Part shown: positions 1,247-29,048 of the stretch, one piece after another | Numbering within the stretch: the stretch's first letter is position 1 | How the letters are laid out: the number at the start of each line of letters is the position of its first letter | Assembly (NCBI GenBank): GCA_947174805.1 | Contig: CAMWKH010000007.1 | Location: 10,345-74,344, forward strand | Direction of reading: 5' to 3' | Length of the DNA: 64,000 bases | DNA from: an uncultured Roseburia sp. | Lineage (GTDB): Bacteria; Bacillota; Clostridia; Lachnospirales; Lachnospiraceae | The notes under the pieces: generated by a model | The model's input: the letters and a program-made list of their open reading frames with translations, nothing else | What the model was told of the DNA's origin: nothing | The model's database searches: none | Position numbers and translations under genes: made by a program

Positions 1247-2221
1247 ATGGAAAAAATAGAAGAATTAAAGGAAAAGATTTTTGGGGGAAATCTTTTGGAG
1301 AAACAGGAGATTATGGAGATTGTGGATGCGCCTTTCCAGGAGCTTACACAGGCGGCAGATGAAATCAGGGAGCGCTTTTGCGGGAATGGTTTTGATATGT
1401 GCACGATTATAAACGGGAAGTGCGGAAAGTGTTCTGAGGACTGTAAGTATTGTGCTCAAAGTGTTTATTTTCACACAAACTGCAAGGAGTCCTATCCTCT
1501 GCTCTCCACAGAGAAGTTATTGGAGCAGGCAAAGCGTAACAGAGAACAGGGGGTGCTTCGGTATTCCATTGTAACCAGTGGAAAACGTCTTTCGGACAGG
1601 GAAGTCGACCAGGTCTGTGAGAGTATACGGGCAATCCGGGAGGAGACAGGGATAGAAGTGTGCGTTTCCTTTGGGCTCTTGGGGCTAAATCAGTTTCAGA
1701 AAATAAAAGAGGCAGGGGCGTCCCGGGTACACTGTAATCTGGAAAGTTCAAAACGGTATTTTAAAGAAGTCTGCACCACCCATACATACCAGGAAAAAAT
1801 AGAAACTTTAAAAGCGGCAAAGGAGGCGGGGCTTTCTATTTGTTCCGGGGGGATTATGGGGCTGGGGGAGAGCATGGAGGACCGGGTGGACATGGCCTTT
1901 ACCGCCAGGGAGCTGGGGGTAACCTCTATTCCGGTGAATCTTTTAAATCCTATTCCGGGAACACCTTATGAGAACAACAGGGTGCTCACCAATGAGGAAC
2001 TTTGCAGGATAGCGGCTATCTTCCGTTTTATCATACCCCGGGCATCGATTCGCCTGGCAGGAGGAAGGGGTCTCCTTGAGGATAAGGGCAGAACCTGTTT
2101 TAGGAGCGGGGCGAACGCAGCCATCAGCGGAGATATGCTCACAACGGCAGGGATTACGGTAGAGACAGATATGGAACTGTTAAAAGAATTAGGATATGAG
2201 GTGAGGCTGTCCCATGAGTAA
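1247..2221 (+). CDS. bioB: Biotin synthase (radical SAM)
   Basis: CSEDCKYCAQS CxxxCxxC motif, HCNLE, CSGGIMGLGE, IRLAGGR. ATG 1247 has an RBS; the ORF track starts at TTG 1205. Confidence 0.97.
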   Translation: MEKIEELKEKIFGGNLLEKQEIMEIVDAPFQELTQAADEIRERFCGNGFDMCTIINGKCGKCSEDCKYCAQSVYFHTNCKESYPLLSTEKLLEQAKRNREQGVLRYSIVTSGKRLSDREVDQVCESIRAIREETGIEVCVSFGLLGLNQFQKIKEAGASRVHCNLESSKRYFKEVCTTHTYQEKIETLKAAKEAGLSICSGGIMGLGESMEDRVDMAFTARELGVTSIPVNLLNPIPGTPYENNRVLTNEELCRIAAIFRFIIPRASIRLAGGRGLLEDKGRTCFRSGANAAISGDMLTTAGITVETDMELLKELGYEVRLSHE

Positions 2222-11872: not shown

Positions 11873-12568
11873 GTGATGATTGGGATAATTGGAGCTATGG
11901 ATCAGGAAGTTGCCAAGTTAAAAGAGATGATGGAGGATGTGAAGGTTACAAATAAGGCATCCAGAGAGTTTTTTGAAGGGAAACTAAACGGGACAGAGGT
12001 GGTGGTAGTCCAGGCGGGAGTGGGAAAAGTAAACGCAGCCTGCTGCACCCAGACATTGATTGATGCCTTTCCTGTAAGCTGTGTGATTAATACGGGAATT
12101 GCAGGAGGCCTTCTGGCAGACATCAATATCGGGGATGTGGTTTTGGCCACAGATGCCGTGGAGCACGATATGGACGCCGCAGTGTTCGGATACGCTCCCG
12201 GGCAGGTTCCAAGCATGGATACCTTTTCTTTTCCTGCGGACGAGCATTTACGCCAGGTGGCAAAAGAGAGCTGCCAAAAGGTAAATCCCGATATTTCCGT
12301 GTATGAGGGAAGGGTTGTAACAGGAGACCAGTTTATATCAGATAAAGAGAAAAAGAAATGGCTTGTGGATACCTTCGGGGGATACTGTACGGAAATGGAG
12401 GGAGGCGCCATCGCCCATGCGGCCTATCTGAATAAAGTGCCTTACCTTATTGTCCGGGCAATTTCCGACAAAGCGGATGACAGCGCCCAGATGGATTATC
12501 CCACATTTGAAAAAGCAGCAATTGAACATTCTGTTCGGTTAATTGCAGAAATGGCAGGTAGATTATAA
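11873..12568 (+). CDS. mtnN: 5'-methylthioadenosine/S-adenosylhomocysteine nucleosidase (Pfs)
   Basis: IGIIGAMDQEV, GVGKVNAA, VTGDQF, EMEGGAIA, RAISDKAD. Confidence 0.96.
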   Translation: MMIGIIGAMDQEVAKLKEMMEDVKVTNKASREFFEGKLNGTEVVVVQAGVGKVNAACCTQTLIDAFPVSCVINTGIAGGLLADINIGDVVLATDAVEHDMDAAVFGYAPGQVPSMDTFSFPADEHLRQVAKESCQKVNPDISVYEGRVVTGDQFISDKEKKKWLVDTFGGYCTEMEGGAIAHAAYLNKVPYLIVRAISDKADDSAQMDYPTFEKAAIEHSVRLIAEMAGRL

Positions 12569-13047
12569 TGGAAAAAATAGCAAGTTTTACAGTAAATCAC
12601 TTAACTCTTTTGCCGGGAGTCTATGTATCCAGAAAGGACCATGTGGGAACAGAGACTCTCACCACATTTGATATCCGCATGACGCGCCCCAATTTTGAAC
12701 CTGTGATGAATACGGCGGAAGTCCATACCATAGAGCATTTGGGGGCGACTTTTTTAAGAAATCACAAGGAGTATGGGGATAAGACGGTATATTTCGGGCC
12801 CATGGGGTGCCGCACAGGCTTTTATCTCATACTGGCAGGGGATTATAAGTCAGAGGACATTATGGAATTGATAAAAGAATTGTTTGCATTTATGCGGGAT
12901 TTTAAAGATGAAGTTCCCGGGGCAGCGGAAAGGGACTGTGGGAATTACCTCGACATGAATCTTCCCATGGCAAATTATCTGGCGGGGAAGTTTTATGAGG
13001 AAGTGCTTATGCATATTACAAAAGAACGCCTGGAGTATCAGGAATAG
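12568..13047 (+). CDS. luxS: S-ribosylhomocysteine lyase (AI-2 synthase)
   Basis: SFTVNH, HTIEHL (HxxEH), GPMGCRTGFY, CGNY; start overlaps the mtnN stop. Confidence 0.97.
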   Translation: MEKIASFTVNHLTLLPGVYVSRKDHVGTETLTTFDIRMTRPNFEPVMNTAEVHTIEHLGATFLRNHKEYGDKTVYFGPMGCRTGFYLILAGDYKSEDIMELIKELFAFMRDFKDEVPGAAERDCGNYLDMNLPMANYLAGKFYEEVLMHITKERLEYQE

Positions 13048-13055
13048 GAGGAACG

Positions 13056-13361
13056 ATGGCAGAGGATAACAGTTTTGGGAAATCCCATGCCCATAAACAT
13101 TCCCATACTCACACAAAGGAGGTGCAAAACCGTCTGGCAAAGGCCGCCGGGCATTTAAACAAAGTCCGTTCCATGGTGGAGAATGGGGAGGACTGCAGTG
13201 AAGTTCTGGTTCAGCTTGCGGCGGTGAAGGCGGCTTTAAACAACACAGGGAAAATTATTTTAAAAGACCATATTGAACACTGTATCGTTCATGCGGTGGA
13301 GGAGGGGGATGCCAGAAAAATCCAGGAACTAAATGAAGCTATCGATAAGTTCATGAAATAG
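13056..13361 (+). CDS. CsoR/RcnR/InrS family metal-sensing repressor with a His-rich N-terminus
   Basis: RLAKAAGHLNKVRSMVENGEDCSEVLVQLAAV and HIEHC; N-terminal HAHKHSHTH. Confidence 0.9.
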   Translation: MAEDNSFGKSHAHKHSHTHTKEVQNRLAKAAGHLNKVRSMVENGEDCSEVLVQLAAVKAALNNTGKIILKDHIEHCIVHAVEEGDARKIQELNEAIDKFMK

Positions 13362-15419: not shown

Positions 15420-16094
15420 CTAAACTGTTTTTTCGATAAAATCCAGCACTTCCTCCAAAGATTTTCCTCCCATCAAGGTGTGGACGCCGTTTATCACTGT
15501 CATTGGCACCCGCTCAATGTGGTACTTTTTCACATAGTCGGGGAAGAGATTGGCATCCACCATCTGGGCACGGATGCTGGGATTTAAAGATGCCATCCTC
15601 TGGCAGGAAATCACTGTCTGCGCGCAGTGGTGGCAGGCAAGGGAGACAAATACCTGAATATTTACGGGTTTGTCTACCGCCTGGGTGCGGGATTTTATTT
15701 TATCCTCCAAAGGCTGTCCGGCTCCTGCGGTATTGTACAGGGCCATCACCAGGGAGTTTAACTCTTTACCTCCCGGCACACCCAGAAAACTCTGTCCGGT
15801 ATAAACATGGCCGTCCCTGTAAATGCCCGCAATGGGGAGGCGGCTGTCATCCAAAAGTTCTTTTTCCAGGGCAGGGTTTTCCCCCGGCTCGTAGAGTTCC
15901 ACGTGTATTTTTTCGCTCAGACGTTCCATATCTTTTAACAGGGATGCCAGCTCCACACATTTGTCATTTTTTATATCAACAATGGACAAAAGCCATACAT
16001 CCTGCTCTAATTTTGAGAACACATCCCCAAGCTGTTTTCTCATTTCCTCATCCAGAAGGGGGGATACTTCCGGTATTTTATCCGGGGCCATCAT
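15420..16094 (-). CDS. Double thioredoxin-fold disulfide oxidoreductase resembling the AhpF N-terminal domain (no flavoprotein domain)
   Basis: FLGVPGGKELNSLVMALYNTAG and VFVSLACHHC CxxC; 224 aa only; overlaps the ahpC stop. Confidence 0.85.
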   Translation of the reverse strand: MMAPDKIPEVSPLLDEEMRKQLGDVFSKLEQDVWLLSIVDIKNDKCVELASLLKDMERLSEKIHVELYEPGENPALEKELLDDSRLPIAGIYRDGHVYTGQSFLGVPGGKELNSLVMALYNTAGAGQPLEDKIKSRTQAVDKPVNIQVFVSLACHHCAQTVISCQRMASLNPSIRAQMVDANLFPDYVKKYHIERVPMTVINGVHTLMGGKSLEEVLDFIEKTV

Positions 16095-16657
16095 AACATA
16101 CCTACCAAATCAAGGCTGGGTTTTAATGTCTCCGCTCCGGGCTGCCATTTTGCCGGGCAGACTTCATCCCCGTGCTCCGCTACAAACTGGGCTGCCTGGA
16201 GTTTCCGCAAAAGCTCCGATGCGTTTCTGCCGATGCCCAGATTGTGGATTTCGTAGGCCTGGATCACTCCCTGGGTGTCTGCGATAAATGTGCCTCTTAG
16301 AGCCTGTCCCTCCTCCGGCAGCAGCACTCCGAACTGTTTTGACAGTTTCCATGCACAATCGCTTAACATGGGATAGCAGATTTTCTTTATGGTGTCAGAT
16401 GCGTCCGCCCATGCTTTGTGGACAAAATGGCTGTCCGTGGACACGGAATAAATTTCACATCCCAGTTTTTGAAATTCTTCGTAATGGTCTGCCAAATCCC
16501 CTAACTCCGTGGGGCATACAAAGGTAAAATCTGCCGGGTAAAAGAAGAAAATGCTCCATTTCCCTAAAAGGTTCTTTTCTGTAATTTCTTTAAATTCTCC
16601 GTTGTGGAAAGCCTGTACACAAAAAGGCTCCACTTTTTTTCCAATAAAATGTTCCAT
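16091..16657 (-). CDS. ahpC: Alkyl hydroperoxide reductase C (2-Cys peroxiredoxin)
   Basis: FYPADFTFVCPTE and EVCPAKW; promoter TTGCAG-17-TAAAAT on the minus strand at 16693-16721. Confidence 0.97.
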   Translation of the reverse strand: MEHFIGKKVEPFCVQAFHNGEFKEITEKNLLGKWSIFFFYPADFTFVCPTELGDLADHYEEFQKLGCEIYSVSTDSHFVHKAWADASDTIKKICYPMLSDCAWKLSKQFGVLLPEEGQALRGTFIADTQGVIQAYEIHNLGIGRNASELLRKLQAAQFVAEHGDEVCPAKWQPGAETLKPSLDLVGML

Positions 16658-16812
16658 ATAAGAAGTACCTCACTTTCTTGTTTGATACTCCTATTTTAAA
16701 TTTAGAGCCGGGACACTGCAAGAAAAAAATGAAAAAAATCCAAATTATTTGTACAATTTTTCCCAACTGTCAAAAATTCCCTGCTTTTCGGGGCTTTCCA
16801 CATTTTCACTTA

Positions 16813-16841
16813 TTGTAATTTGTAATTTTACAGGATATAAT
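16813..16841 (+). promoter_or_regulatory. SigA-type promoter of the repeat-peptide gene
   Basis: TTGTAA (16813-18), 17 bp, TATAAT (16836-41). Confidence 0.7.
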
Positions 16842-16896
16842 AAAGTTGCATCTGAAAATGCTTTATCAATGAATGGAAAACAGGAGGGATTTTATT

Positions 16897-17085
16897 ATGG
16901 ATGATAAGAAATTGGGAATTGATAACATGAACGGGGATACTGACAACGAAGAAAAGACCTGCGGGTTAAACGACATGAACTGCCTCGGGGGAGATCAGCC
17001 TTCCCATGGACTTAACAATATGAACGGAGATACAAACAACGAGGATAAGACCTGTGGGTTAAATGACATGAACTGTGTAGAGTAA
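16897..17085 (+). CDS. Orphan 62-aa acidic peptide with a duplicated Cys/Asn/Asp/Met-rich unit
   Basis: RBS AGGAGG before ATG 16897; two 23-aa copies (19/23 identical) at a 93-nt period; own promoter and terminator. Confidence 0.85.
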   Translation: MDDKKLGIDNMNGDTDNEEKTCGLNDMNCLGGDQPSHGLNNMNGDTNNEDKTCGLNDMNCVE

Positions 17086-17168: not shown

Positions 17169-17203
17169 AGGCGGACATCGTTTTTTTAGATGTTCGCCTT
17201 TTT
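17169..17203 (+). terminator. Intrinsic terminator after the repeat-peptide gene
   Basis: AGGCGGACATC...GATGTTCGCCT stem followed by TTTT. Confidence 0.8.
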
Positions 17204-17242
17204 CTTTGCAATTTTTTTCACATTTTTTACATTTTGTGCAAT

Positions 17243-17260
17243 TTGTAAAAATTTTAACAC
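17243..17260. promoter_or_regulatory. Candidate Rex box upstream of glpK
   Basis: TTGTAAA-AATT-TTAACAC versus the clostridial Rex pattern TTGTTAA-N4-TTAACAA (2 mismatches); AT-rich context. Confidence 0.45.
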
Positions 17261-17359: not shown

Positions 17360-18859
<1,500 letters not shown>

Positions 18860-18883
18860 AAACAGACTGAGGGGGGAATTTTT

Positions 18884-19597
18884 ATGTTACCGTATATTGC
18901 AGAATTCGTTGGAACATGTATGCTTATTATTTTAGGTGACGGTGTTGTTGCCAATGTAACTTTAAACAAATCAGGCATGAAGGGAGCTGGCTCGATTCAA
19001 ATCACTCTTGCTTGGGGTCTTGCAGTTTTGGTTCCGGCATTCATTTTCGGAGAGGCTTCCGGCGCATCTTTCAACCCGGCGCTTACCATTGCCCTAGCTG
19101 CTGACGGCAGTTTTGCATGGAGCATGGTGCCCGGATATGTTGTAGCACAGATAGCAGGTGCTTTCTTAGGTGCATGTATTGTATATATCTTATTTAAAGA
19201 GCAGTTTGACGCCACAGAAGATCCCGGCTCCAAATTGGGATGTTTCTCCACTGGCCCGTCTGTTCCCAATATGCCTCTGAATATCTTAAGTGAGGCCATT
19301 GGTACATTTGTTTTAGTATTTGCCATCAAAGGTATCGGCAATGTAACAGGACTTTCCGTAGGTGTGGATAAATTATTCGTATTTGGAATTATCGTTTCCG
19401 TTGGTATGTCCCTTGGTGGATTGACAGGATATGCGATTAACCCAGCCAGAGACTTAGGTCCCCGTCTTGCACATGCTGTGCTTCCGATTAAAGGAAAAGG
19501 CGATTCCAACTTTGGATACGGACTGGTTGTACCGGTTATCGGGCCAATCCTTGGCGCATTAGCAGCAGTTGGATTATATGCAGTTATTCCATGGTAA
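18884..19597 (+). CDS. glpF: Glycerol uptake facilitator (aquaglyceroporin)
   Basis: Two NPA motifs (SFNPAL; YAINPARDLGPR). Confidence 0.96.
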   Translation: MLPYIAEFVGTCMLIILGDGVVANVTLNKSGMKGAGSIQITLAWGLAVLVPAFIFGEASGASFNPALTIALAADGSFAWSMVPGYVVAQIAGAFLGACIVYILFKEQFDATEDPGSKLGCFSTGPSVPNMPLNILSEAIGTFVLVFAIKGIGNVTGLSVGVDKLFVFGIIVSVGMSLGGLTGYAINPARDLGPRLAHAVLPIKGKGDSNFGYGLVVPVIGPILGALAAVGLYAVIPW

Positions 19598-19671
19598 TAT
19601 TGTTCGTGCTTGACTTTACACTTGCATTTTACAAAAGGGAACTACATAAAACCTAAAAATTAAATGAATGT

Positions 19672-19731
19672 AAGAGTTAAGAGCCATGCAGGATACATCG
19701 GAAACGATGTCTAATAAGCATGGCTCTTTTT
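19672..19731 (+). promoter_or_regulatory. GlpP-type antitermination leader (terminator with an inner GAAA hairpin) between glpF and the G3P dehydrogenase genes
   Basis: AAGAGCCATGC...GCATGGCTCTT stem + T-tract, inner ACATCG-GAAA-CGATGT; the same architecture occurs upstream of glpP. Confidence 0.75.
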
Positions 19732-19794
19732 CACGACAAGTGAAACAGCTGGCTGTTTCATCTTGTAAAAAAACAAAATTAGGAGGACTATAAT

Positions 19795-21240
19795 ATGTAT
19801 GATGTAGTAATCATTGGAGCCGGTGTGACCGGAAGTTCCAGTGCAAGGGAACTTTCCCGTTATAATCTGAATATCTGTGTGATAGACAAAGAGGAAGATG
19901 TATGCTGCGGCACATCCAAGGCAAACAGCGCCATTGTCCACTCTGGTATCGACTGCAAACCGGGGACTTTAATGGCCGAGATGAACGTAAAAGGAAATGA
20001 ACTGATGGAGCCTCTCTCCAAGGAGCTGGATTTTGAATTTAAGAGAAACGGTTCTTTGATCCTGTGTTTTGCAGAGGAGGATATGCCCCACTTAAAAGAA
20101 CTTTATCAGCAGGGAATCGATAATAAAATACCCGATATTAAAATCTTAAACAAAGAGGAACTCCACGAGATGGAGCCCAATATTTCCGATGAAGCCGTCG
20201 CTGCGATTTATGCACCTTCCGGAGGAATTGTATGTCCCTTCGGCATGAATATTGCTATGGCGGAAAATGCCTATGACAACGGCGTGGAATTCCGTTTTAA
20301 CACGGAAGTGAGAACCATTAAAAAGATAGAAGGCGGCTATGAGCTTGCCACAAACAACGGCAGTATCCGTACAAAATGCGTGGTGAATGCAGCAGGGGTC
20401 TATGCAGACAAATTCCATAATATGGTCAGCGCTAAAAAGATTCATATCACCCCCAGAAGAGGAGAGTACTGCCTCCTTGACAAAACCACCGGAGGACTGG
20501 TAAGTAAAACCATATTCCAGCTTCCAGGAAAATACGGAAAAGGAATCCTGGTAACGCCTACGGTTCACGGCAATACTTTAATCGGGCCTACCGCAGATGA
20601 CCATGACGATCCGGAATCCACCAGCACAACAGCAGAAGGCCTTGCCCATGTATGCCAGGCTGCCACAAGAAGTGTTCCCAGTGTTCCCGTGCGCCAGGTA
20701 ATCACCTCTTTCTCCGGCAACCGTGCCCATGAAGACAACCATGAATTTATTATTGAGGAACTTAGCGACGCACCTTTCTTTGTGGATGCTGCAGGAATTG
20801 AGTCCCCCGGACTTACCAGCGCCCCGGCTATCGGAGTTAAGGTTGCCGATATTGTATGCGGACTGTTGAAACCGGAAAAGAACCCGGCCTTTAACGGCAC
20901 GAGAAAAGGGATTGTTGATCCTAAGAAACTCTCAGAGGAAGAGTATGCAAAACTCATTAAAGAGAAACCCGCTTACGGTAATATTATCTGCCGGTGTGAG
21001 ACAGTGACAGAGGGTGAAATCATAGATGCCATCACAAGGTCCTTAGGTGCAAAATCCTTAGACGGGGTGAAGCGCAGGACGAGAGCGGGAATGGGACGGT
21101 GCCAGGCAGGTTTCTGTTCACCGAAGACCATGGAGATTATCGGAAGAGAATTGGGACTTTCCCAGCTTGAGATTACAAAGAACGGCGGAAAATCCAATAT
21201 GGTAGTGGGTTACAGCAAAAAGAGCGCACAGGAGGTATAA
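19795..21240 (+). CDS. glpA: FAD-dependent glycerol-3-phosphate dehydrogenase subunit (GlpA/LhgO-like) with a C-terminal BFD-like [2Fe-2S] domain
   Basis: GAGVTG FAD motif, GTSKANSAIVH, ICRCETV and RAGMGRCQAGFC; lies in the glpKF operon. Confidence 0.85.
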   Translation: MYDVVIIGAGVTGSSSARELSRYNLNICVIDKEEDVCCGTSKANSAIVHSGIDCKPGTLMAEMNVKGNELMEPLSKELDFEFKRNGSLILCFAEEDMPHLKELYQQGIDNKIPDIKILNKEELHEMEPNISDEAVAAIYAPSGGIVCPFGMNIAMAENAYDNGVEFRFNTEVRTIKKIEGGYELATNNGSIRTKCVVNAAGVYADKFHNMVSAKKIHITPRRGEYCLLDKTTGGLVSKTIFQLPGKYGKGILVTPTVHGNTLIGPTADDHDDPESTSTTAEGLAHVCQAATRSVPSVPVRQVITSFSGNRAHEDNHEFIIEELSDAPFFVDAAGIESPGLTSAPAIGVKVADIVCGLLKPEKNPAFNGTRKGIVDPKKLSEEEYAKLIKEKPAYGNIICRCETVTEGEIIDAITRSLGAKSLDGVKRRTRAGMGRCQAGFCSPKTMEIIGRELGLSQLEITKNGGKSNMVVGYSKKSAQEV

Positions 21241-21244
21241 GAAT

Positions 21245-22513
21245 ATGAGTTCCTATGATATCGTAATTATCGGCGGGGGTCCTGCAGGACTTGCAGCAGC
21301 AGCATCCGCAAAAAGAAACGGGATTGACAGTATATTAATCTTAGAAAGAGACAGTCAGTTAGGCGGTATATTAAATCAGTGTATCCACAATGGATTTGGG
21401 CTTCACACATTTAAGGAAGAGCTTACCGGGCCGGAATATGCAAAACGCTTTATTGACCAGGTGGAGGAGCTGAAAATTGAATATAAATTAAATACCATGG
21501 TTATGGATATCGCCGACGATAAAACCATTACGGCAATGAACCGTACCGATGGATTATTTAAAATTGAGGCAAAAGCCATTGTCCTTGCCATGGGATGCAG
21601 GGAGCGTTCCAGAGGAGCATTAAATATTCCGGGATTCCGTCCTGCAGGAGTATACTCAGCAGGTACAGCCCAGCGTCTGGTAAACATTGAAGGGTATATG
21701 CCAGGCCGGGAAGTTGTAATTTTAGGATCCGGTGATATCGGACTGATTATGGCGAGACGTATGACCTTAGAGGGTGCAAAAGTTAAGGTTGTAGCAGAGT
21801 TGATGCCATTCTCCGGCGGTTTAAAGAGAAATATTGTACAGTGTCTTGACGATTTTGGCATTCCTTTAAAATTAAGCCATACTGTAGTGGATATCCGGGG
21901 CAAGGAGCGCTTGGAGGGAATTACTCTGGCGGAAGTTGACAATCACGGAAAACCGATTCCCGGCACAGAGGAGGATTATACCTGTGATACTTTGCTCTTA
22001 TCCTGCGGTTTGATTCCGGAAAACGAGCTGTCCAGGGGAATCGGCGTGGATATGAATGCCATCACCAGCGGGCCTTCCGTAAACGAGTCCTTAGAAACCA
22101 GCATCGAGGGAGTATTTGCCTGCGGTAATGTGCTCCATGTGCATGATCTGGTGGATTTTGTGTCGGAGGAAGCAGCGGCAGCAGGAAAGAATGCGGCAAA
22201 ATATGTACAGAACAACTGTACCATGGGAGAGGCAGGAAAAGAGATTCCTATTATCGCCACCGACGGCGTGCGTTACACCGTTCCAAAGACGATTCATGTG
22301 AACCGTATGGAGGATGAGCTTGTAGTCCGTTTCCGTGTGGGCGCCGTTTACAAAAACAGCTATATTACCACATATTTAAATGATAAACAGATTATCCACA
22401 GGAAGAGACCTATTATGGCTCCCGGCGAGATGGAAGAGATTAAGCTGAAAAAATCCGAACTGGAAGCATTTGGCGGTTTAGAAAATATTACTGTGAAAAT
22501 AGAGGAGGCATAA
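21245..22513 (+). CDS. NAD(P)/FAD-dependent oxidoreductase, partner of the GlpA-like subunit
   Basis: GGGPAG, LNQCIHNGFG, GSGDIG, FACGNVLHVHD. Confidence 0.88.
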   Translation: MSSYDIVIIGGGPAGLAAAASAKRNGIDSILILERDSQLGGILNQCIHNGFGLHTFKEELTGPEYAKRFIDQVEELKIEYKLNTMVMDIADDKTITAMNRTDGLFKIEAKAIVLAMGCRERSRGALNIPGFRPAGVYSAGTAQRLVNIEGYMPGREVVILGSGDIGLIMARRMTLEGAKVKVVAELMPFSGGLKRNIVQCLDDFGIPLKLSHTVVDIRGKERLEGITLAEVDNHGKPIPGTEEDYTCDTLLLSCGLIPENELSRGIGVDMNAITSGPSVNESLETSIEGVFACGNVLHVHDLVDFVSEEAAAAGKNAAKYVQNNCTMGEAGKEIPIIATDGVRYTVPKTIHVNRMEDELVVRFRVGAVYKNSYITTYLNDKQIIHRKRPIMAPGEMEEIKLKKSELEAFGGLENITVKIEEA

Positions 22514-22516
22514 ATC

Positions 22517-22885
22517 ATGGATGTTAGAAATCTTACCTGTATCGGTTGCCCTTTAGGCTGCGCCCTTAAGGTTGAAATGGAAAACGGAGAAGTACTTAGC
22601 GTAAGCGGAAATACCTGCAAACGCGGGGATGATTACGCCAGAAAAGAAGTGACGCATCCAACCCGTATTGTCACCAGCACCGTAGCTGTGACAGGAGGGG
22701 ATATTGCCATGGTATCCGTAAAAACCCAGAATGATATTCCGAAAGAGAAGATTATGGATATTATGAAGAGCATTGAAGATATCAAGGTGGAAGCTCCCGT
22801 TCACATTGGTGATGTGATTGTGGCAAATGCGGCAGACACCGGGGTGAATATCATTGCTACAAAAGATATTAAAAAAGTGGGCTAG
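22517..22885 (+). CDS. Small Cys-motif protein (DUF1667-like), third gene of the G3P dehydrogenase module
   Basis: LTCIGCPLGC...GNTCKRG, four-Cys pattern. Confidence 0.85.
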   Translation: MDVRNLTCIGCPLGCALKVEMENGEVLSVSGNTCKRGDDYARKEVTHPTRIVTSTVAVTGGDIAMVSVKTQNDIPKEKIMDIMKSIEDIKVEAPVHIGDVIVANAADTGVNIIATKDIKKVG

Positions 22886-28157: not shown

Positions 28158-28724
28158 TTACATTTCCCACACTTTTGGATTGGTAGTGGAAATTGCAATA
28201 GCCCCTGCTTTCAGTGCAGATAAGACATCTTCTTTCTCGGAAATCAATCCCCCTGCGATAATGGGAACTCCCAGTTTTGATGCCATAATCTTTATGATTT
28301 TTGGCATCAATCCCGGCAGGATTTCCACAATATCTGCATACTCTTTGATATGGGTGTTCAGATTGTCGATGACCTTGGAATCAATCACAAAAATACGGTA
28401 TATGGTATTTAAGGATAATTCTTTGGCACGTTTAATCTGTTCGATTCGGGTGGAAATAATTCCGTCAGCCTTTGTGTAGCAGGAGATAAAATCCACTGCC
28501 TCCACTTTTGAGCTTAAACCTGCAATTAAATCCATGTGCACCACCACGGTTTTGCCTGCCTCTTTTATCTGCTCTACGATTCCGGCGATGGTACTGACGT
28601 CCCCATACAGCACAAATACCACGCTGGTATCTCCGGAACCTAAGCATTTTTCCAATCCCTTTTCATCTTTAATGGCCGCTATGATGGGATTGTTTGTAAC
28701 CGCATCGTAAAATGCCTGTTTCAT
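28158..28724 (-). CDS. glpP: Glycerol-3-phosphate-responsive antiterminator
   Basis: NPIIAAI, VHMDLIAGL, DGIISTR, EILPGLMPK, IIAGGLI, AISTT. Confidence 0.95.
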   Translation of the reverse strand: MKQAFYDAVTNNPIIAAIKDEKGLEKCLGSGDTSVVFVLYGDVSTIAGIVEQIKEAGKTVVVHMDLIAGLSSKVEAVDFISCYTKADGIISTRIEQIKRAKELSLNTIYRIFVIDSKVIDNLNTHIKEYADIVEILPGLMPKIIKIMASKLGVPIIAGGLISEKEDVLSALKAGAIAISTTNPKVWEM

Positions 28725-28912
28725 TCAAATCTCCTTTCTAAGTTTTTGCGCTGTAAACTGCGCGTCCAGATATACCCAGATGGTATTTCTGTATATTTTA
28801 CGGGACAATCCACTGTATAAGAACCTTCTCCTGTAAATTTCTTATAGATCAACCCTTTGCTGAAGCAGTAAAAATTGTGGCAGGGCATGTATTCATTGTC
28901 CCTATGGGGTAT

Positions 28913-29048
28913 AAAAAAAGAGCATGACTATAAAATAACATTTCTGTTATGTATATAACCATCTCTTTTTCTCTAGGTCACATATAAATCAATGTCTCTG
29001 CACATTATTTTATGTGCTTATTATACCTTCTTTCGACAAAAATTGCAA
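28913..29048 (-). promoter_or_regulatory. glpP promoter followed by a GlpP-type leader terminator
   Basis: Minus strand TTGCAA (29048-43)-17-TATAAT (29025-20); leader AGAGAAAAAGAGATGG...ATAACA-GAAA-TGTTAT...CATGCTCTTTTTTT (28977-28913). Confidence 0.75.

Follow-up and report, generated by a model that had tools for sequence, protein, structure and literature searches.

A 62-aa open reading frame located divergent from ahpC and upstream of glpK in the window (the whole 64,000-nucleotide stretch of Roseburia sp. DNA analysed here) is, judged from sequence, a real and strongly constrained protein-coding gene. Its product belongs to the 'DMN-loop' four-repeat mini-proteins, which by profile and literature searches are an undescribed family. 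Its role is probably that of an accessory in thiol redox chemistry, as opposed to that of an antibiotic-like modified peptide. In the reading that we prefer, to which we assign a probability of about 0.4, it is an acidic, disordered cytoplasmic mini-protein that is not matured enzymatically and whose C-x6-C loops would switch between dithiol and disulfide forms under peroxide stress. New here are (i) the census of the four repeat units, (ii) the strict covariation of the Cys residues within a pair, (iii) the exact co-occurrence with a stand-alone AhpF N-terminal domain (AhpF-NTD) and (iv) a Cys-less superfamily together with its genomic contexts.

The frame reads exactly as an earlier note on this DNA had it, and the signals that the note assigned to the gene itself (a promoter, a ribosome-binding site and a terminator) were all located (Table 1). 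With promoter and terminator both present, the gene would be transcribed independently, as had been proposed. The divergence from ahpC was likewise reproduced, and no maturase gene was found in the flanks that were read, again in agreement with the note. An in-frame ATG at 16873, upstream of the start codon, has no RBS and is unused in homologues. We also note that the −35 hexamer and spacer of the promoter are overlapped by a tandem TTGTAAT TTGTAAT ... TTTACA. The terminator hairpin is found in both the MFE and the centroid structures; a consensus terminator scan gave no call for it, only because its loop is longer than 8 nt. The AGAG..AAGAG motif of GlpP leaders is absent from this terminator and present upstream of glpA and glpP, giving two GlpP-type leaders in the same window. 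A role as a leader peptide or attenuator of glpK under GlpP was considered and rejected, as the terminator is without this motif and the gene is found elsewhere after dhaM, or alone beside ahpC with no gene downstream. The encoded protein (6.7 kDa, pI about 4.05) contains 12 Asn, 10 Asp, 5 Met and 4 Cys, and is devoid of aromatic residues, Arg and Ala. It is present in single copy, with no paralogue found by profile search of its own genome.

Table 1. Features of the mini-protein gene, its repeat units and its neighbours in the window
Feature	Position	Strand	Remarks
Stand-alone AhpF N-terminal-domain-like thioredoxin-fold protein (CHHC)	15420..16094	-	Thioredoxin_3; co-operonic with ahpC
ahpC (2-Cys peroxiredoxin)	16091..16657	-	AhpC-TSA 3e-35, 1-cysPrx_C; divergent from mini-protein gene
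ahpC promoter TTGACA-18-AATAAT	16773-16744	-	sequence signal
Sigma-70-type promoter TTGTAA-17-TATAAT of mini-protein gene	16813..16841	+	10/12 match
Shine-Dalgarno AGGAGG	16882..16887	+	9 nt 5' of mini-protein ATG
Mini-protein ORF	16897..17085	+	ATG at 16897, TAA ends 17085; 62 aa: MDDKKLGIDNMNGDTDNEEKTCGLNDMNCLGGDQPSHGLNNMNGDTNNEDKTCGLNDMNCVE
Unit 1 (L6-G13, LGIDNMNG)	16912..16935	+	Cys-less loop unit; Cys-less in 77/78 sequences
Unit 2 (C22-C29, CGLNDMNC)	16960..16983	+	C-x6-C loop; both Cys invariant, 78/78
Unit 3 (H37-G44, HGLNNMNG)	17005..17028	+	Cys-less here; Cys/Cys in 44/78 relatives
Unit 4 (C53-C60, CGLNDMNC)	17053..17076	+	C-x6-C loop; both Cys in 76/76 where the unit exists
Intrinsic terminator of mini-protein gene	17169..17208	+	11-bp stem 17169-17179 / 17189-17199, 9-nt loop, U-run
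glpK, glpF, fngA/fngB/fngC (DAO+BFD, Pyr_redox_2, DUF1667)	17363..22885	+	glycerol uptake, phosphorylation, G3P oxidation
glpP (G3P-responsive antiterminator)	28158..28724	-	–

The mini-protein is built by duplication. Residues 7–29 and 38–60 are encoded by DNA that is 82.6% identical, with 12 base differences distributed 3/0/9 over codon positions 1/2/3, and the 7 synonymous and 4 non-synonymous codons are those counted in the earlier note. A shorter motif, G[IL][DN][ND]MN, begins at residues 7, 23, 38 and 54, and the spacings of 16, 15 and 16 residues bear out the fourfold recurrence described there. Alignments of relatives resolve a unit of ~16 residues, consisting of a core X-G-[LI]-x-[DN]-M-N-X' followed by an acidic linker that ends in K-[TS]; the four-unit design is exact in 75 of 78 unique sequences. 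The Cys residues occupy positions X and X' and come strictly in pairs. This is most evident for unit 3, where both Cys are present in 44 sequences, neither in 34 and a single one in none (n = 78 unique sequences). Each family protein thus has two or three pairs, strictly i/i+7 (two in the window protein), and truncated members carry one. Cys-less units are conserved as well as Cys units, and the conserved Met is exchanged for Leu or Gln in some units. We define the Cys-pair subfamily by four units of the form X-G/S-[LI]-x-[DN]-M-N-X', Cys/Cys in units 2 and 4, a length of 60–70 aa, an acidic composition and a gene beside ahpC/ahpF-NTD and/or glp-fng-dha genes; the window protein has all of these features and serves as the reference member.

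The earlier note described the peptide as an orphan, and this description does not hold. A word-indexed search returned 114 related protein clusters, every one of them unnamed. When each species was represented by a single genome, 169 species genomes proved to carry relatives. Carriers include Roseburia, Enterocloster aldenensis, E. citroniae and E. clostridioformis, Lacrimispora, Hungatella, Mediterraneibacter, Faecalimonas, Clostridium porci, Oscillospiraceae and Caproiciproducens. The selection on the protein that the note had read from the duplication is confirmed at this larger scale: dN/dS is about 0.05 among the Roseburia orthologues, and the 119 exact CGLNDMNC octamers show between them each of the four Gly codons, five Leu codons drawn from the two codon families, and both codons each of Cys, Asn and Asp. 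An octamer that is invariant while every synonymous codon is used must be held constant by selection on the protein and not by an RNA or DNA motif. An RNA or DNA element is ruled out by this free synonymous variation, by the low dN/dS and by the lack of any Rfam match. In 70 of 81 family members, the start codon called in our analysis has an SD-like sequence in front of it. The note had allowed that the peptide might turn out to belong to an already characterised family. Profile searches of Pfam, NCBIfam, Rfam and PDB gave no match, the literature search returned no paper with the motif or a description of the family, and the searched passages of the paper on FngABC (PMC13689815) make no mention of the mini-protein.

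The check for homologues and conserved neighbours that the note recommended shows that, besides the many relatives, ahp, glp and dha neighbours recur. Eleven reference proteins were mapped on 80 species loci, whose flanks extended for up to 10 kb, and individual homologues were looked up in addition. An ahpC gene, a stand-alone AhpF-NTD gene (Pfam Thioredoxin_3) or both occur in 66 of the 80 loci, and 58 carry glpP, glpK, glpF, the DAO+BFD / Pyr_redox_2 / DUF1667 trio or dhaKLM. Both gene sets are present in 46 loci and at least one in 78; the two loci with neither start about 110 bases upstream of the mini-protein gene, where the contig or the available sequence ends. About 12 of the 80 contain glp/dha genes and lack ahpC over a distance of 10 kb. 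When all ORFs within ±6 kb were clustered, no further family recurred in more than 12 of the 80 loci. Within the cluster the mini-protein gene takes at least five different positions: divergent from ahpC (31 loci), directly after DUF1667 (36 loci, in 23 of which dhaK follows), between glpF and dhaK (4 loci), after dhaM (2 loci) and after ahpF-NTD on the same strand (2 loci). That the gene shifts its slot yet keeps to the same gene set argues for functional coupling. An exact-dyad search found no PerR-, Fur- or Rex-like operator general to the regions upstream of members. Local TGTAA/TTACA palindromes occur in the window and in L100, with different spacing.

Co-occurrence within the genus points the same way. 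The mini-protein is present in G000, G009, G016 and G019 of 61 relatives searched. Among 37 relatives, a stand-alone AhpF-NTD is found in exactly these four genomes, which are also the ones with AhpC of >90% identity (three more distant AhpC matches occur elsewhere); glpK is found in 27 of the 37. The genes for AhpF-NTD, AhpC and the mini-protein are therefore an accessory trio in this genus, placed upstream of a widespread glpK operon, and the trio adjoins, or is embedded in, the glpP-glpK-glpF-fngABC-dhaKLM cluster for glycerol oxidation. In an even sample of the order (401 genomes), the peptide occurs in only 2, and AhpF or AhpF-NTD in 42, mostly as full-length AhpF. Since other Lachnospirales have a stand-alone AhpF-NTD without the peptide, the peptide is not obligatory to AhpF-NTD systems.

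Flavoenzymes of the FngABC kind tend to react with O2, and this would account for a peroxidase adjoining fngABC. The DAO / Pyr_redox_2 / DUF1667 trio of the window corresponds to FngABC, an assignment that follows PMC13689815. That recent paper shows FngABC of Pyrococcus furiosus to be an electron-bifurcating, flavin-based G3P oxidoreductase dependent on ferredoxin and NAD, and it reports the enzyme to be common among Clostridia (PMC13689815).

Relatives of the same size that have no Cys pairs and instead consist of four [FY]-S-[LI]-x-[DN]-M-N-G-[IVM]-[ST] units came to light when a profile was run against 1.8 billion representatives and in another indexed search. They are homologous to the mini-protein, because their profile matches the window ORF at 4e-13. 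We also observed a weak profile match to a Met-rich periplasmic-type repeat protein, P0159. When the two kinds of unit are aligned, the aromatic residue of a Cys-less unit falls where a Cys unit has its first Cys, and the Gly falls where it has its second. This suggests that X and X' touch each other and that a disulfide (or else a ligand bridging them) may substitute for a constitutive aromatic–Gly closure of the loop. In Caproiciproducens sp. R2 the Cys-less gene lies between superoxide reductase (SOR) and rubrerythrin, just after an EncFtn/encapsulin pair. Others adjoin an HD-domain gene and EncFtn/encapsulin, sit between the ACR3 and arsD genes of an ars operon, downstream of a Thioredoxin_3-type gene, or are divergent from an iron-siderophore-type ABC importer or from glpP-dhaKLM-glpKF-fngAB. 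Two further contexts have nothing informative nearby. The theme shared by the superfamily is oxidant and metal(loid) defence, together with glycerol oxidation.

The occurrence of Cys-less relatives in stress operons indicates that the core function of the superfamily does not need thiols. The mini-protein may be a thiol-independent regulatory or protective binder. It could inhibit an enzyme or regulator of the stress or glycerol systems or serve as its adaptor, or it could be a hydrophilin-like protectant; the GLxDMN loops would then be the functional elements and the Cys pairs structural staples. The conservation of the core [FY]S[LI]x[DN]MNG x4 without Cys, the Cys-less member beside the glycerol genes and the acidic character of the protein are all consistent with such a role, and the extreme conservation of the octamer implies recognition of a partner. 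AlphaFold2 also leaves the protein disordered, giving no secondary structure and no fold on either a 64-sequence Cys-type alignment (pLDDT 64) or the Cys-less alignment (pLDDT 54), although too few aligned sequences could by themselves account for such low confidence. The mini-protein shares its small size, hydrophilicity, repetitive sequence, disorder and placement in stress operons with repeat hydrophilins such as GsiB and the KGG-repeat proteins of stress regulons. They differ in their repeat motif, there is no match to Pfam KGG, and the conservation of the mini-protein is much stricter and its Cys are paired. A pure binder leaves unexplained why the Cys-pair subfamily in particular tracks AhpC/AhpF-NTD, and we regard it as rather unlikely.

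The same contexts can be viewed from the side of metals. A metal(loid)-binding or -buffering mini-protein would use its C-x6-C loops, with the Asp, Met and Asn inside them, to chelate Fe2+, Zn2+ or Cu+, thereby curbing Fenton chemistry or assisting the iron enzymes of the stress regulon. Strict Cys pairing, the invariance of the Asp, Met and Asn within the loop, the very acidic linkers, the proximity of relatives to EncFtn/encapsulin, SOR, rubrerythrin, an iron ABC importer and an ars operon, and the weak match to P0159 would fit this proposal. However, there are just 4–6 Cys per 62–67 residues, and the CxxC and CxC motifs are absent; with 4 Cys in 62 residues at C-x6-C spacing only, the window protein has neither the Cys density nor the CxC/CxxC clusters of metallothioneins. 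The variable number of pairs (two or three, one if truncated) leaves no fixed tetrahedral site, and since some units have Leu or Gln in place of the Met, that position looks more like one for packing or contacts than for a ligand. The same loops are moreover kept without Cys in iron and arsenic contexts, and no metal-binding Pfam family matches. The EF-hand-like loop suggested in the note finds no support either, with no Pfam EF-hand match at E ≤ 10 and, with Gly/Cys placed at position 6, Leu/Ile at position 1. On balance, we consider metal binding rather unlikely.

One idea of the earlier note was a multi-core RiPP precursor modified in trans, with ranthipeptide-like Cys-X3-Asp thioethers or similar cross-links made by a maturase encoded elsewhere in the genome. 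The motif is present in both copies as stated (C22-G-L-N-D26 and C53-G-L-N-D57), although by itself it is weak evidence. C-X3-D is the spacing of the PapB/freyrasin cross-links. The cross-linking of the Cys motif in freyrasin by PapB is described in PMC9413430. Like the ranthipeptide precursors (PapA/freyrasin and SCIFF), the mini-protein is a small Cys peptide of Firmicutes in which a Cys motif with C-X3-D is repeated, and it is acidic and has no predicted fold. Unlike them, it has neither an adjacent or co-occurring rSAM-SPASM maturase nor a leader/core layout. No rSAM, ATP-grasp or lanthionine synthetase gene, and no maturase of any kind, RRE protein, peptidase or exporter, recurs in the 80 loci (±6–10 kb). 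The four units are fixed in number, as opposed to a leader with a variable number of cores, two of them are Cys-less in the window protein, and Cys-less units are equally conserved; whole homologues without Cys exist. Its gene is regularly part of operons for primary metabolism and stress, and no NCBIfam precursor family matches.

A maturase acting in trans was also sought in the genome itself, whose SPASM rSAM enzymes number only two, both accounted for. The first is a SCIFF maturase, directly preceded by a canonical precursor of its own, and this genuine SCIFF locus looks entirely different from that of the mini-protein. The second adjoins a transporter and had no match in any of 30 further genomes searched, among them G009 and G016, which do carry the peptide. 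Taken with the fixed four-unit layout and the loci surveyed, these results count against modification in trans, and a RiPP precursor is highly improbable.

A simpler use of the same residues would be a sacrificial sink for oxidants or electrophiles, in which exposed Met and Cys scavenge H2O2, HOCl, or the glycerol-derived methylglyoxal and dihydroxyacetone. The content of 5 Met and 4 Cys in 62 residues and the peroxide and glycerol/DHA contexts would suit such a function. A simple sink, however, needs no invariant octamer, no fixed four-unit layout and no strictly paired Cys, and would be poorly served by the exchange of Met for Leu or Gln in some units; we find it very unlikely.

The note's broader suggestion of a metal or redox peptide or an oxidant sink fits in its general direction, based on the AhpC/AhpF-NTD and glycerol neighbourhood, the co-occurrence and the i/i+7 Cys pairs; the metal and sink versions are those weighed above. 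In the thiol-switch reading that we prefer, exposure to O2 or H2O2 would cause each Cys pair to close as an intraloop disulfide, either directly or by way of an AhpC/AhpF-NTD thiol relay. The stapled GLxDMN loops would then engage a partner, and the mini-protein would act as a redox-switched accessory factor, whether as a dithiol/disulfide sensor, a relay or a buffer. We infer disulfide formation only from the strict pairwise conservation of the Cys residues, and a bidentate metal site would predict the same pattern.

Two known systems invite comparison. CP12 is a conditionally disordered redox-switch protein of the Calvin cycle, switched by disulfides and possessing two Cys pairs, and the switching proposed here is drawn by analogy with it. 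Both proteins would be disordered chains of roughly 60–80 residues with two Cys pairs able to close short loops, and the mini-protein, like CP12, would couple a metabolic enzyme set to the redox state. There is no sequence similarity between them, the organisms and the pathway are different, and in the mini-protein disulfide switching and partner binding are proposed properties. The second comparison is with the clostridial peroxiredoxin partners, namely the stand-alone AhpF-NTD and Cp9, a glutaredoxin-like redox partner in the peroxiredoxin system of C. pasteurianum. As with these partners, the mini-protein is encoded with ahpC, has dithiols and is a plausible member of a thiol relay. In contrast to them, it has C-x6-C spacing in place of CxxC and no thioredoxin fold; membership in that fold found no support in Pfam, in the AlphaFold2 models or in a PDB profile search, which came back empty.

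A more specific version of the proposal, which we regard as decidedly unlikely in its full form, is a peroxide-gated switch. AhpC-driven oxidation would staple the C-x6-C loops into the conformation that the Cys-less relatives would hold constitutively by aromatic–Gly contact, and the stapled form would bind and throttle an O2-sensitive target, most plausibly FngABC or the entry steps catalysed by GlpK/DhaK. Gut Clostridia that lack glutathione would in this way tie their oxidation of glycerol to the oxidant load, and the 'DMN-loop' proteins would more generally form a new class of adaptors encoded in stress operons, those for peroxide, superoxide, iron and arsenic.

For genome mining, the case carries the caution that repeated Cys motifs in a small ORF do not equal a RiPP. 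The small proteins of gut anaerobes are largely uncharted. Many Lachnospiraceae and Oscillospiraceae, whether cultured or not, have this family, which is tightly linked to coping with oxygen and peroxide in strict anaerobes that oxidise glycerol, a host- and diet-derived substrate. If the mini-protein is a true thiol switch or relay, it would be a new component of the AhpC/AhpF-NTD systems of Clostridia and would offer a concrete, testable handle on the redox control of the newly described FngABC.

The promoter of the mini-protein gene carries a tandem TTGTAAT TTGTAAT followed by TTTACA, and the resulting TGTAA-TT-TTACA dyad overlaps both the -35 hexamer and the spacer. The dyad is kept in the two closest Roseburia loci, not beyond, and may be an operator. 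For glpK, a consensus sigma-70 promoter was not found from the mini-protein terminator to the start codon. The near-palindrome in this interval, TTGTAAAAATTTTAACA, resembles a Rex-type box, for which we take the consensus to be TTGTTAA-N4-TTAACAA. The leaders of glpA/fngA and glpP resemble each other and, judged by sequence, look like GlpP-controlled attenuators; their AGAG-nn-AAGAG motif is absent from the terminator 3′ of the mini-protein gene.

Coordinates of regulatory elements, neighboring genes, relatives and radical-SAM loci
Feature	Location	Strand	Position or context
luxS and CsoR/RcnR-family repressor gene	window 12568-13361		
ahpF-NTD and ahpC	window 15420-16657		
TGTAA-TT-TTACA dyad	window 16809-16835		mini-protein promoter
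Near-palindrome	window 17243-17259		between mini-protein terminator and glpK
Leader (AGAG-nn-AAGAG, terminator hairpin, U-run)	window 19672-19735	+	upstream of glpA/fngA
Leader (AGAG-nn-AAGAG, terminator hairpin, U-run)	window 28905-28975	-	upstream of glpP
SPASM radical-SAM gene (350 aa), then membrane-protein gene (423 aa)	G000:C26:787-3034		outside window
Canonical SCIFF precursor (…GGCGECQTSCQSACKTSCTVGNQTCEQSK) and SPASM maturase gene	G000:C9:17297-19026		outside window; precursor directly 5′ of maturase gene
GC-rich hairpin	L008 10245-10300		3′ of mini-protein gene
Cys-less relative	L106 8001-8294 (CP195750)		Caproiciproducens sp. R2
Cys-poor four-repeat relative	L112 (G280:C26) 1377-1658		arsenic-resistance operon

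At L008, where the homologous gene lies within an operon (DUF1667-[mini-protein gene]-dhaK), the GC-rich hairpin (CCGGGAACCAG…CTGGTTCCCGG) has no U-run and may be a processing or stabilizing element rather than a terminator. In the window itself, at a distance of some 3.5 kb to the mini-protein gene, luxS is followed at once by a gene for a CsoR/RcnR-family metal-sensitive repressor (Trns_repr_metal match, 2e-25).

Two radical-SAM loci lie elsewhere in the source genome, G000. The SCIFF locus encodes a SPASM maturase of 469 aa. The other, on C26, pairs its SPASM gene with a membrane protein that, by appearance, is a putative efflux transporter; the SPASM gene had no match in the 30 other genomes searched, and the locus may be a separate RiPP-like island.

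Relatives of the mini-protein occur in other stress loci. The Cys-poor one has an ACR3 efflux gene on one side and arsD-arsA-arsC on the other; a Thioredoxin_3-type gene also lies upstream. The Cys-less one, immediately downstream of an encapsulated-ferritin/encapsulin pair, is flanked by the genes for desulfoferrodoxin (superoxide reductase) and rubrerythrin.

Within the genus, the trio of ahpF-NTD, ahpC and mini-protein is accessory. Only four of the genomes sampled carry it (G000 and the related G009, G016 and G019), whereas 19 of the 23 sampled from the genus (27/37 of all) have the adjoining glpK operon, which suggests that the three genes were gained as one unit.
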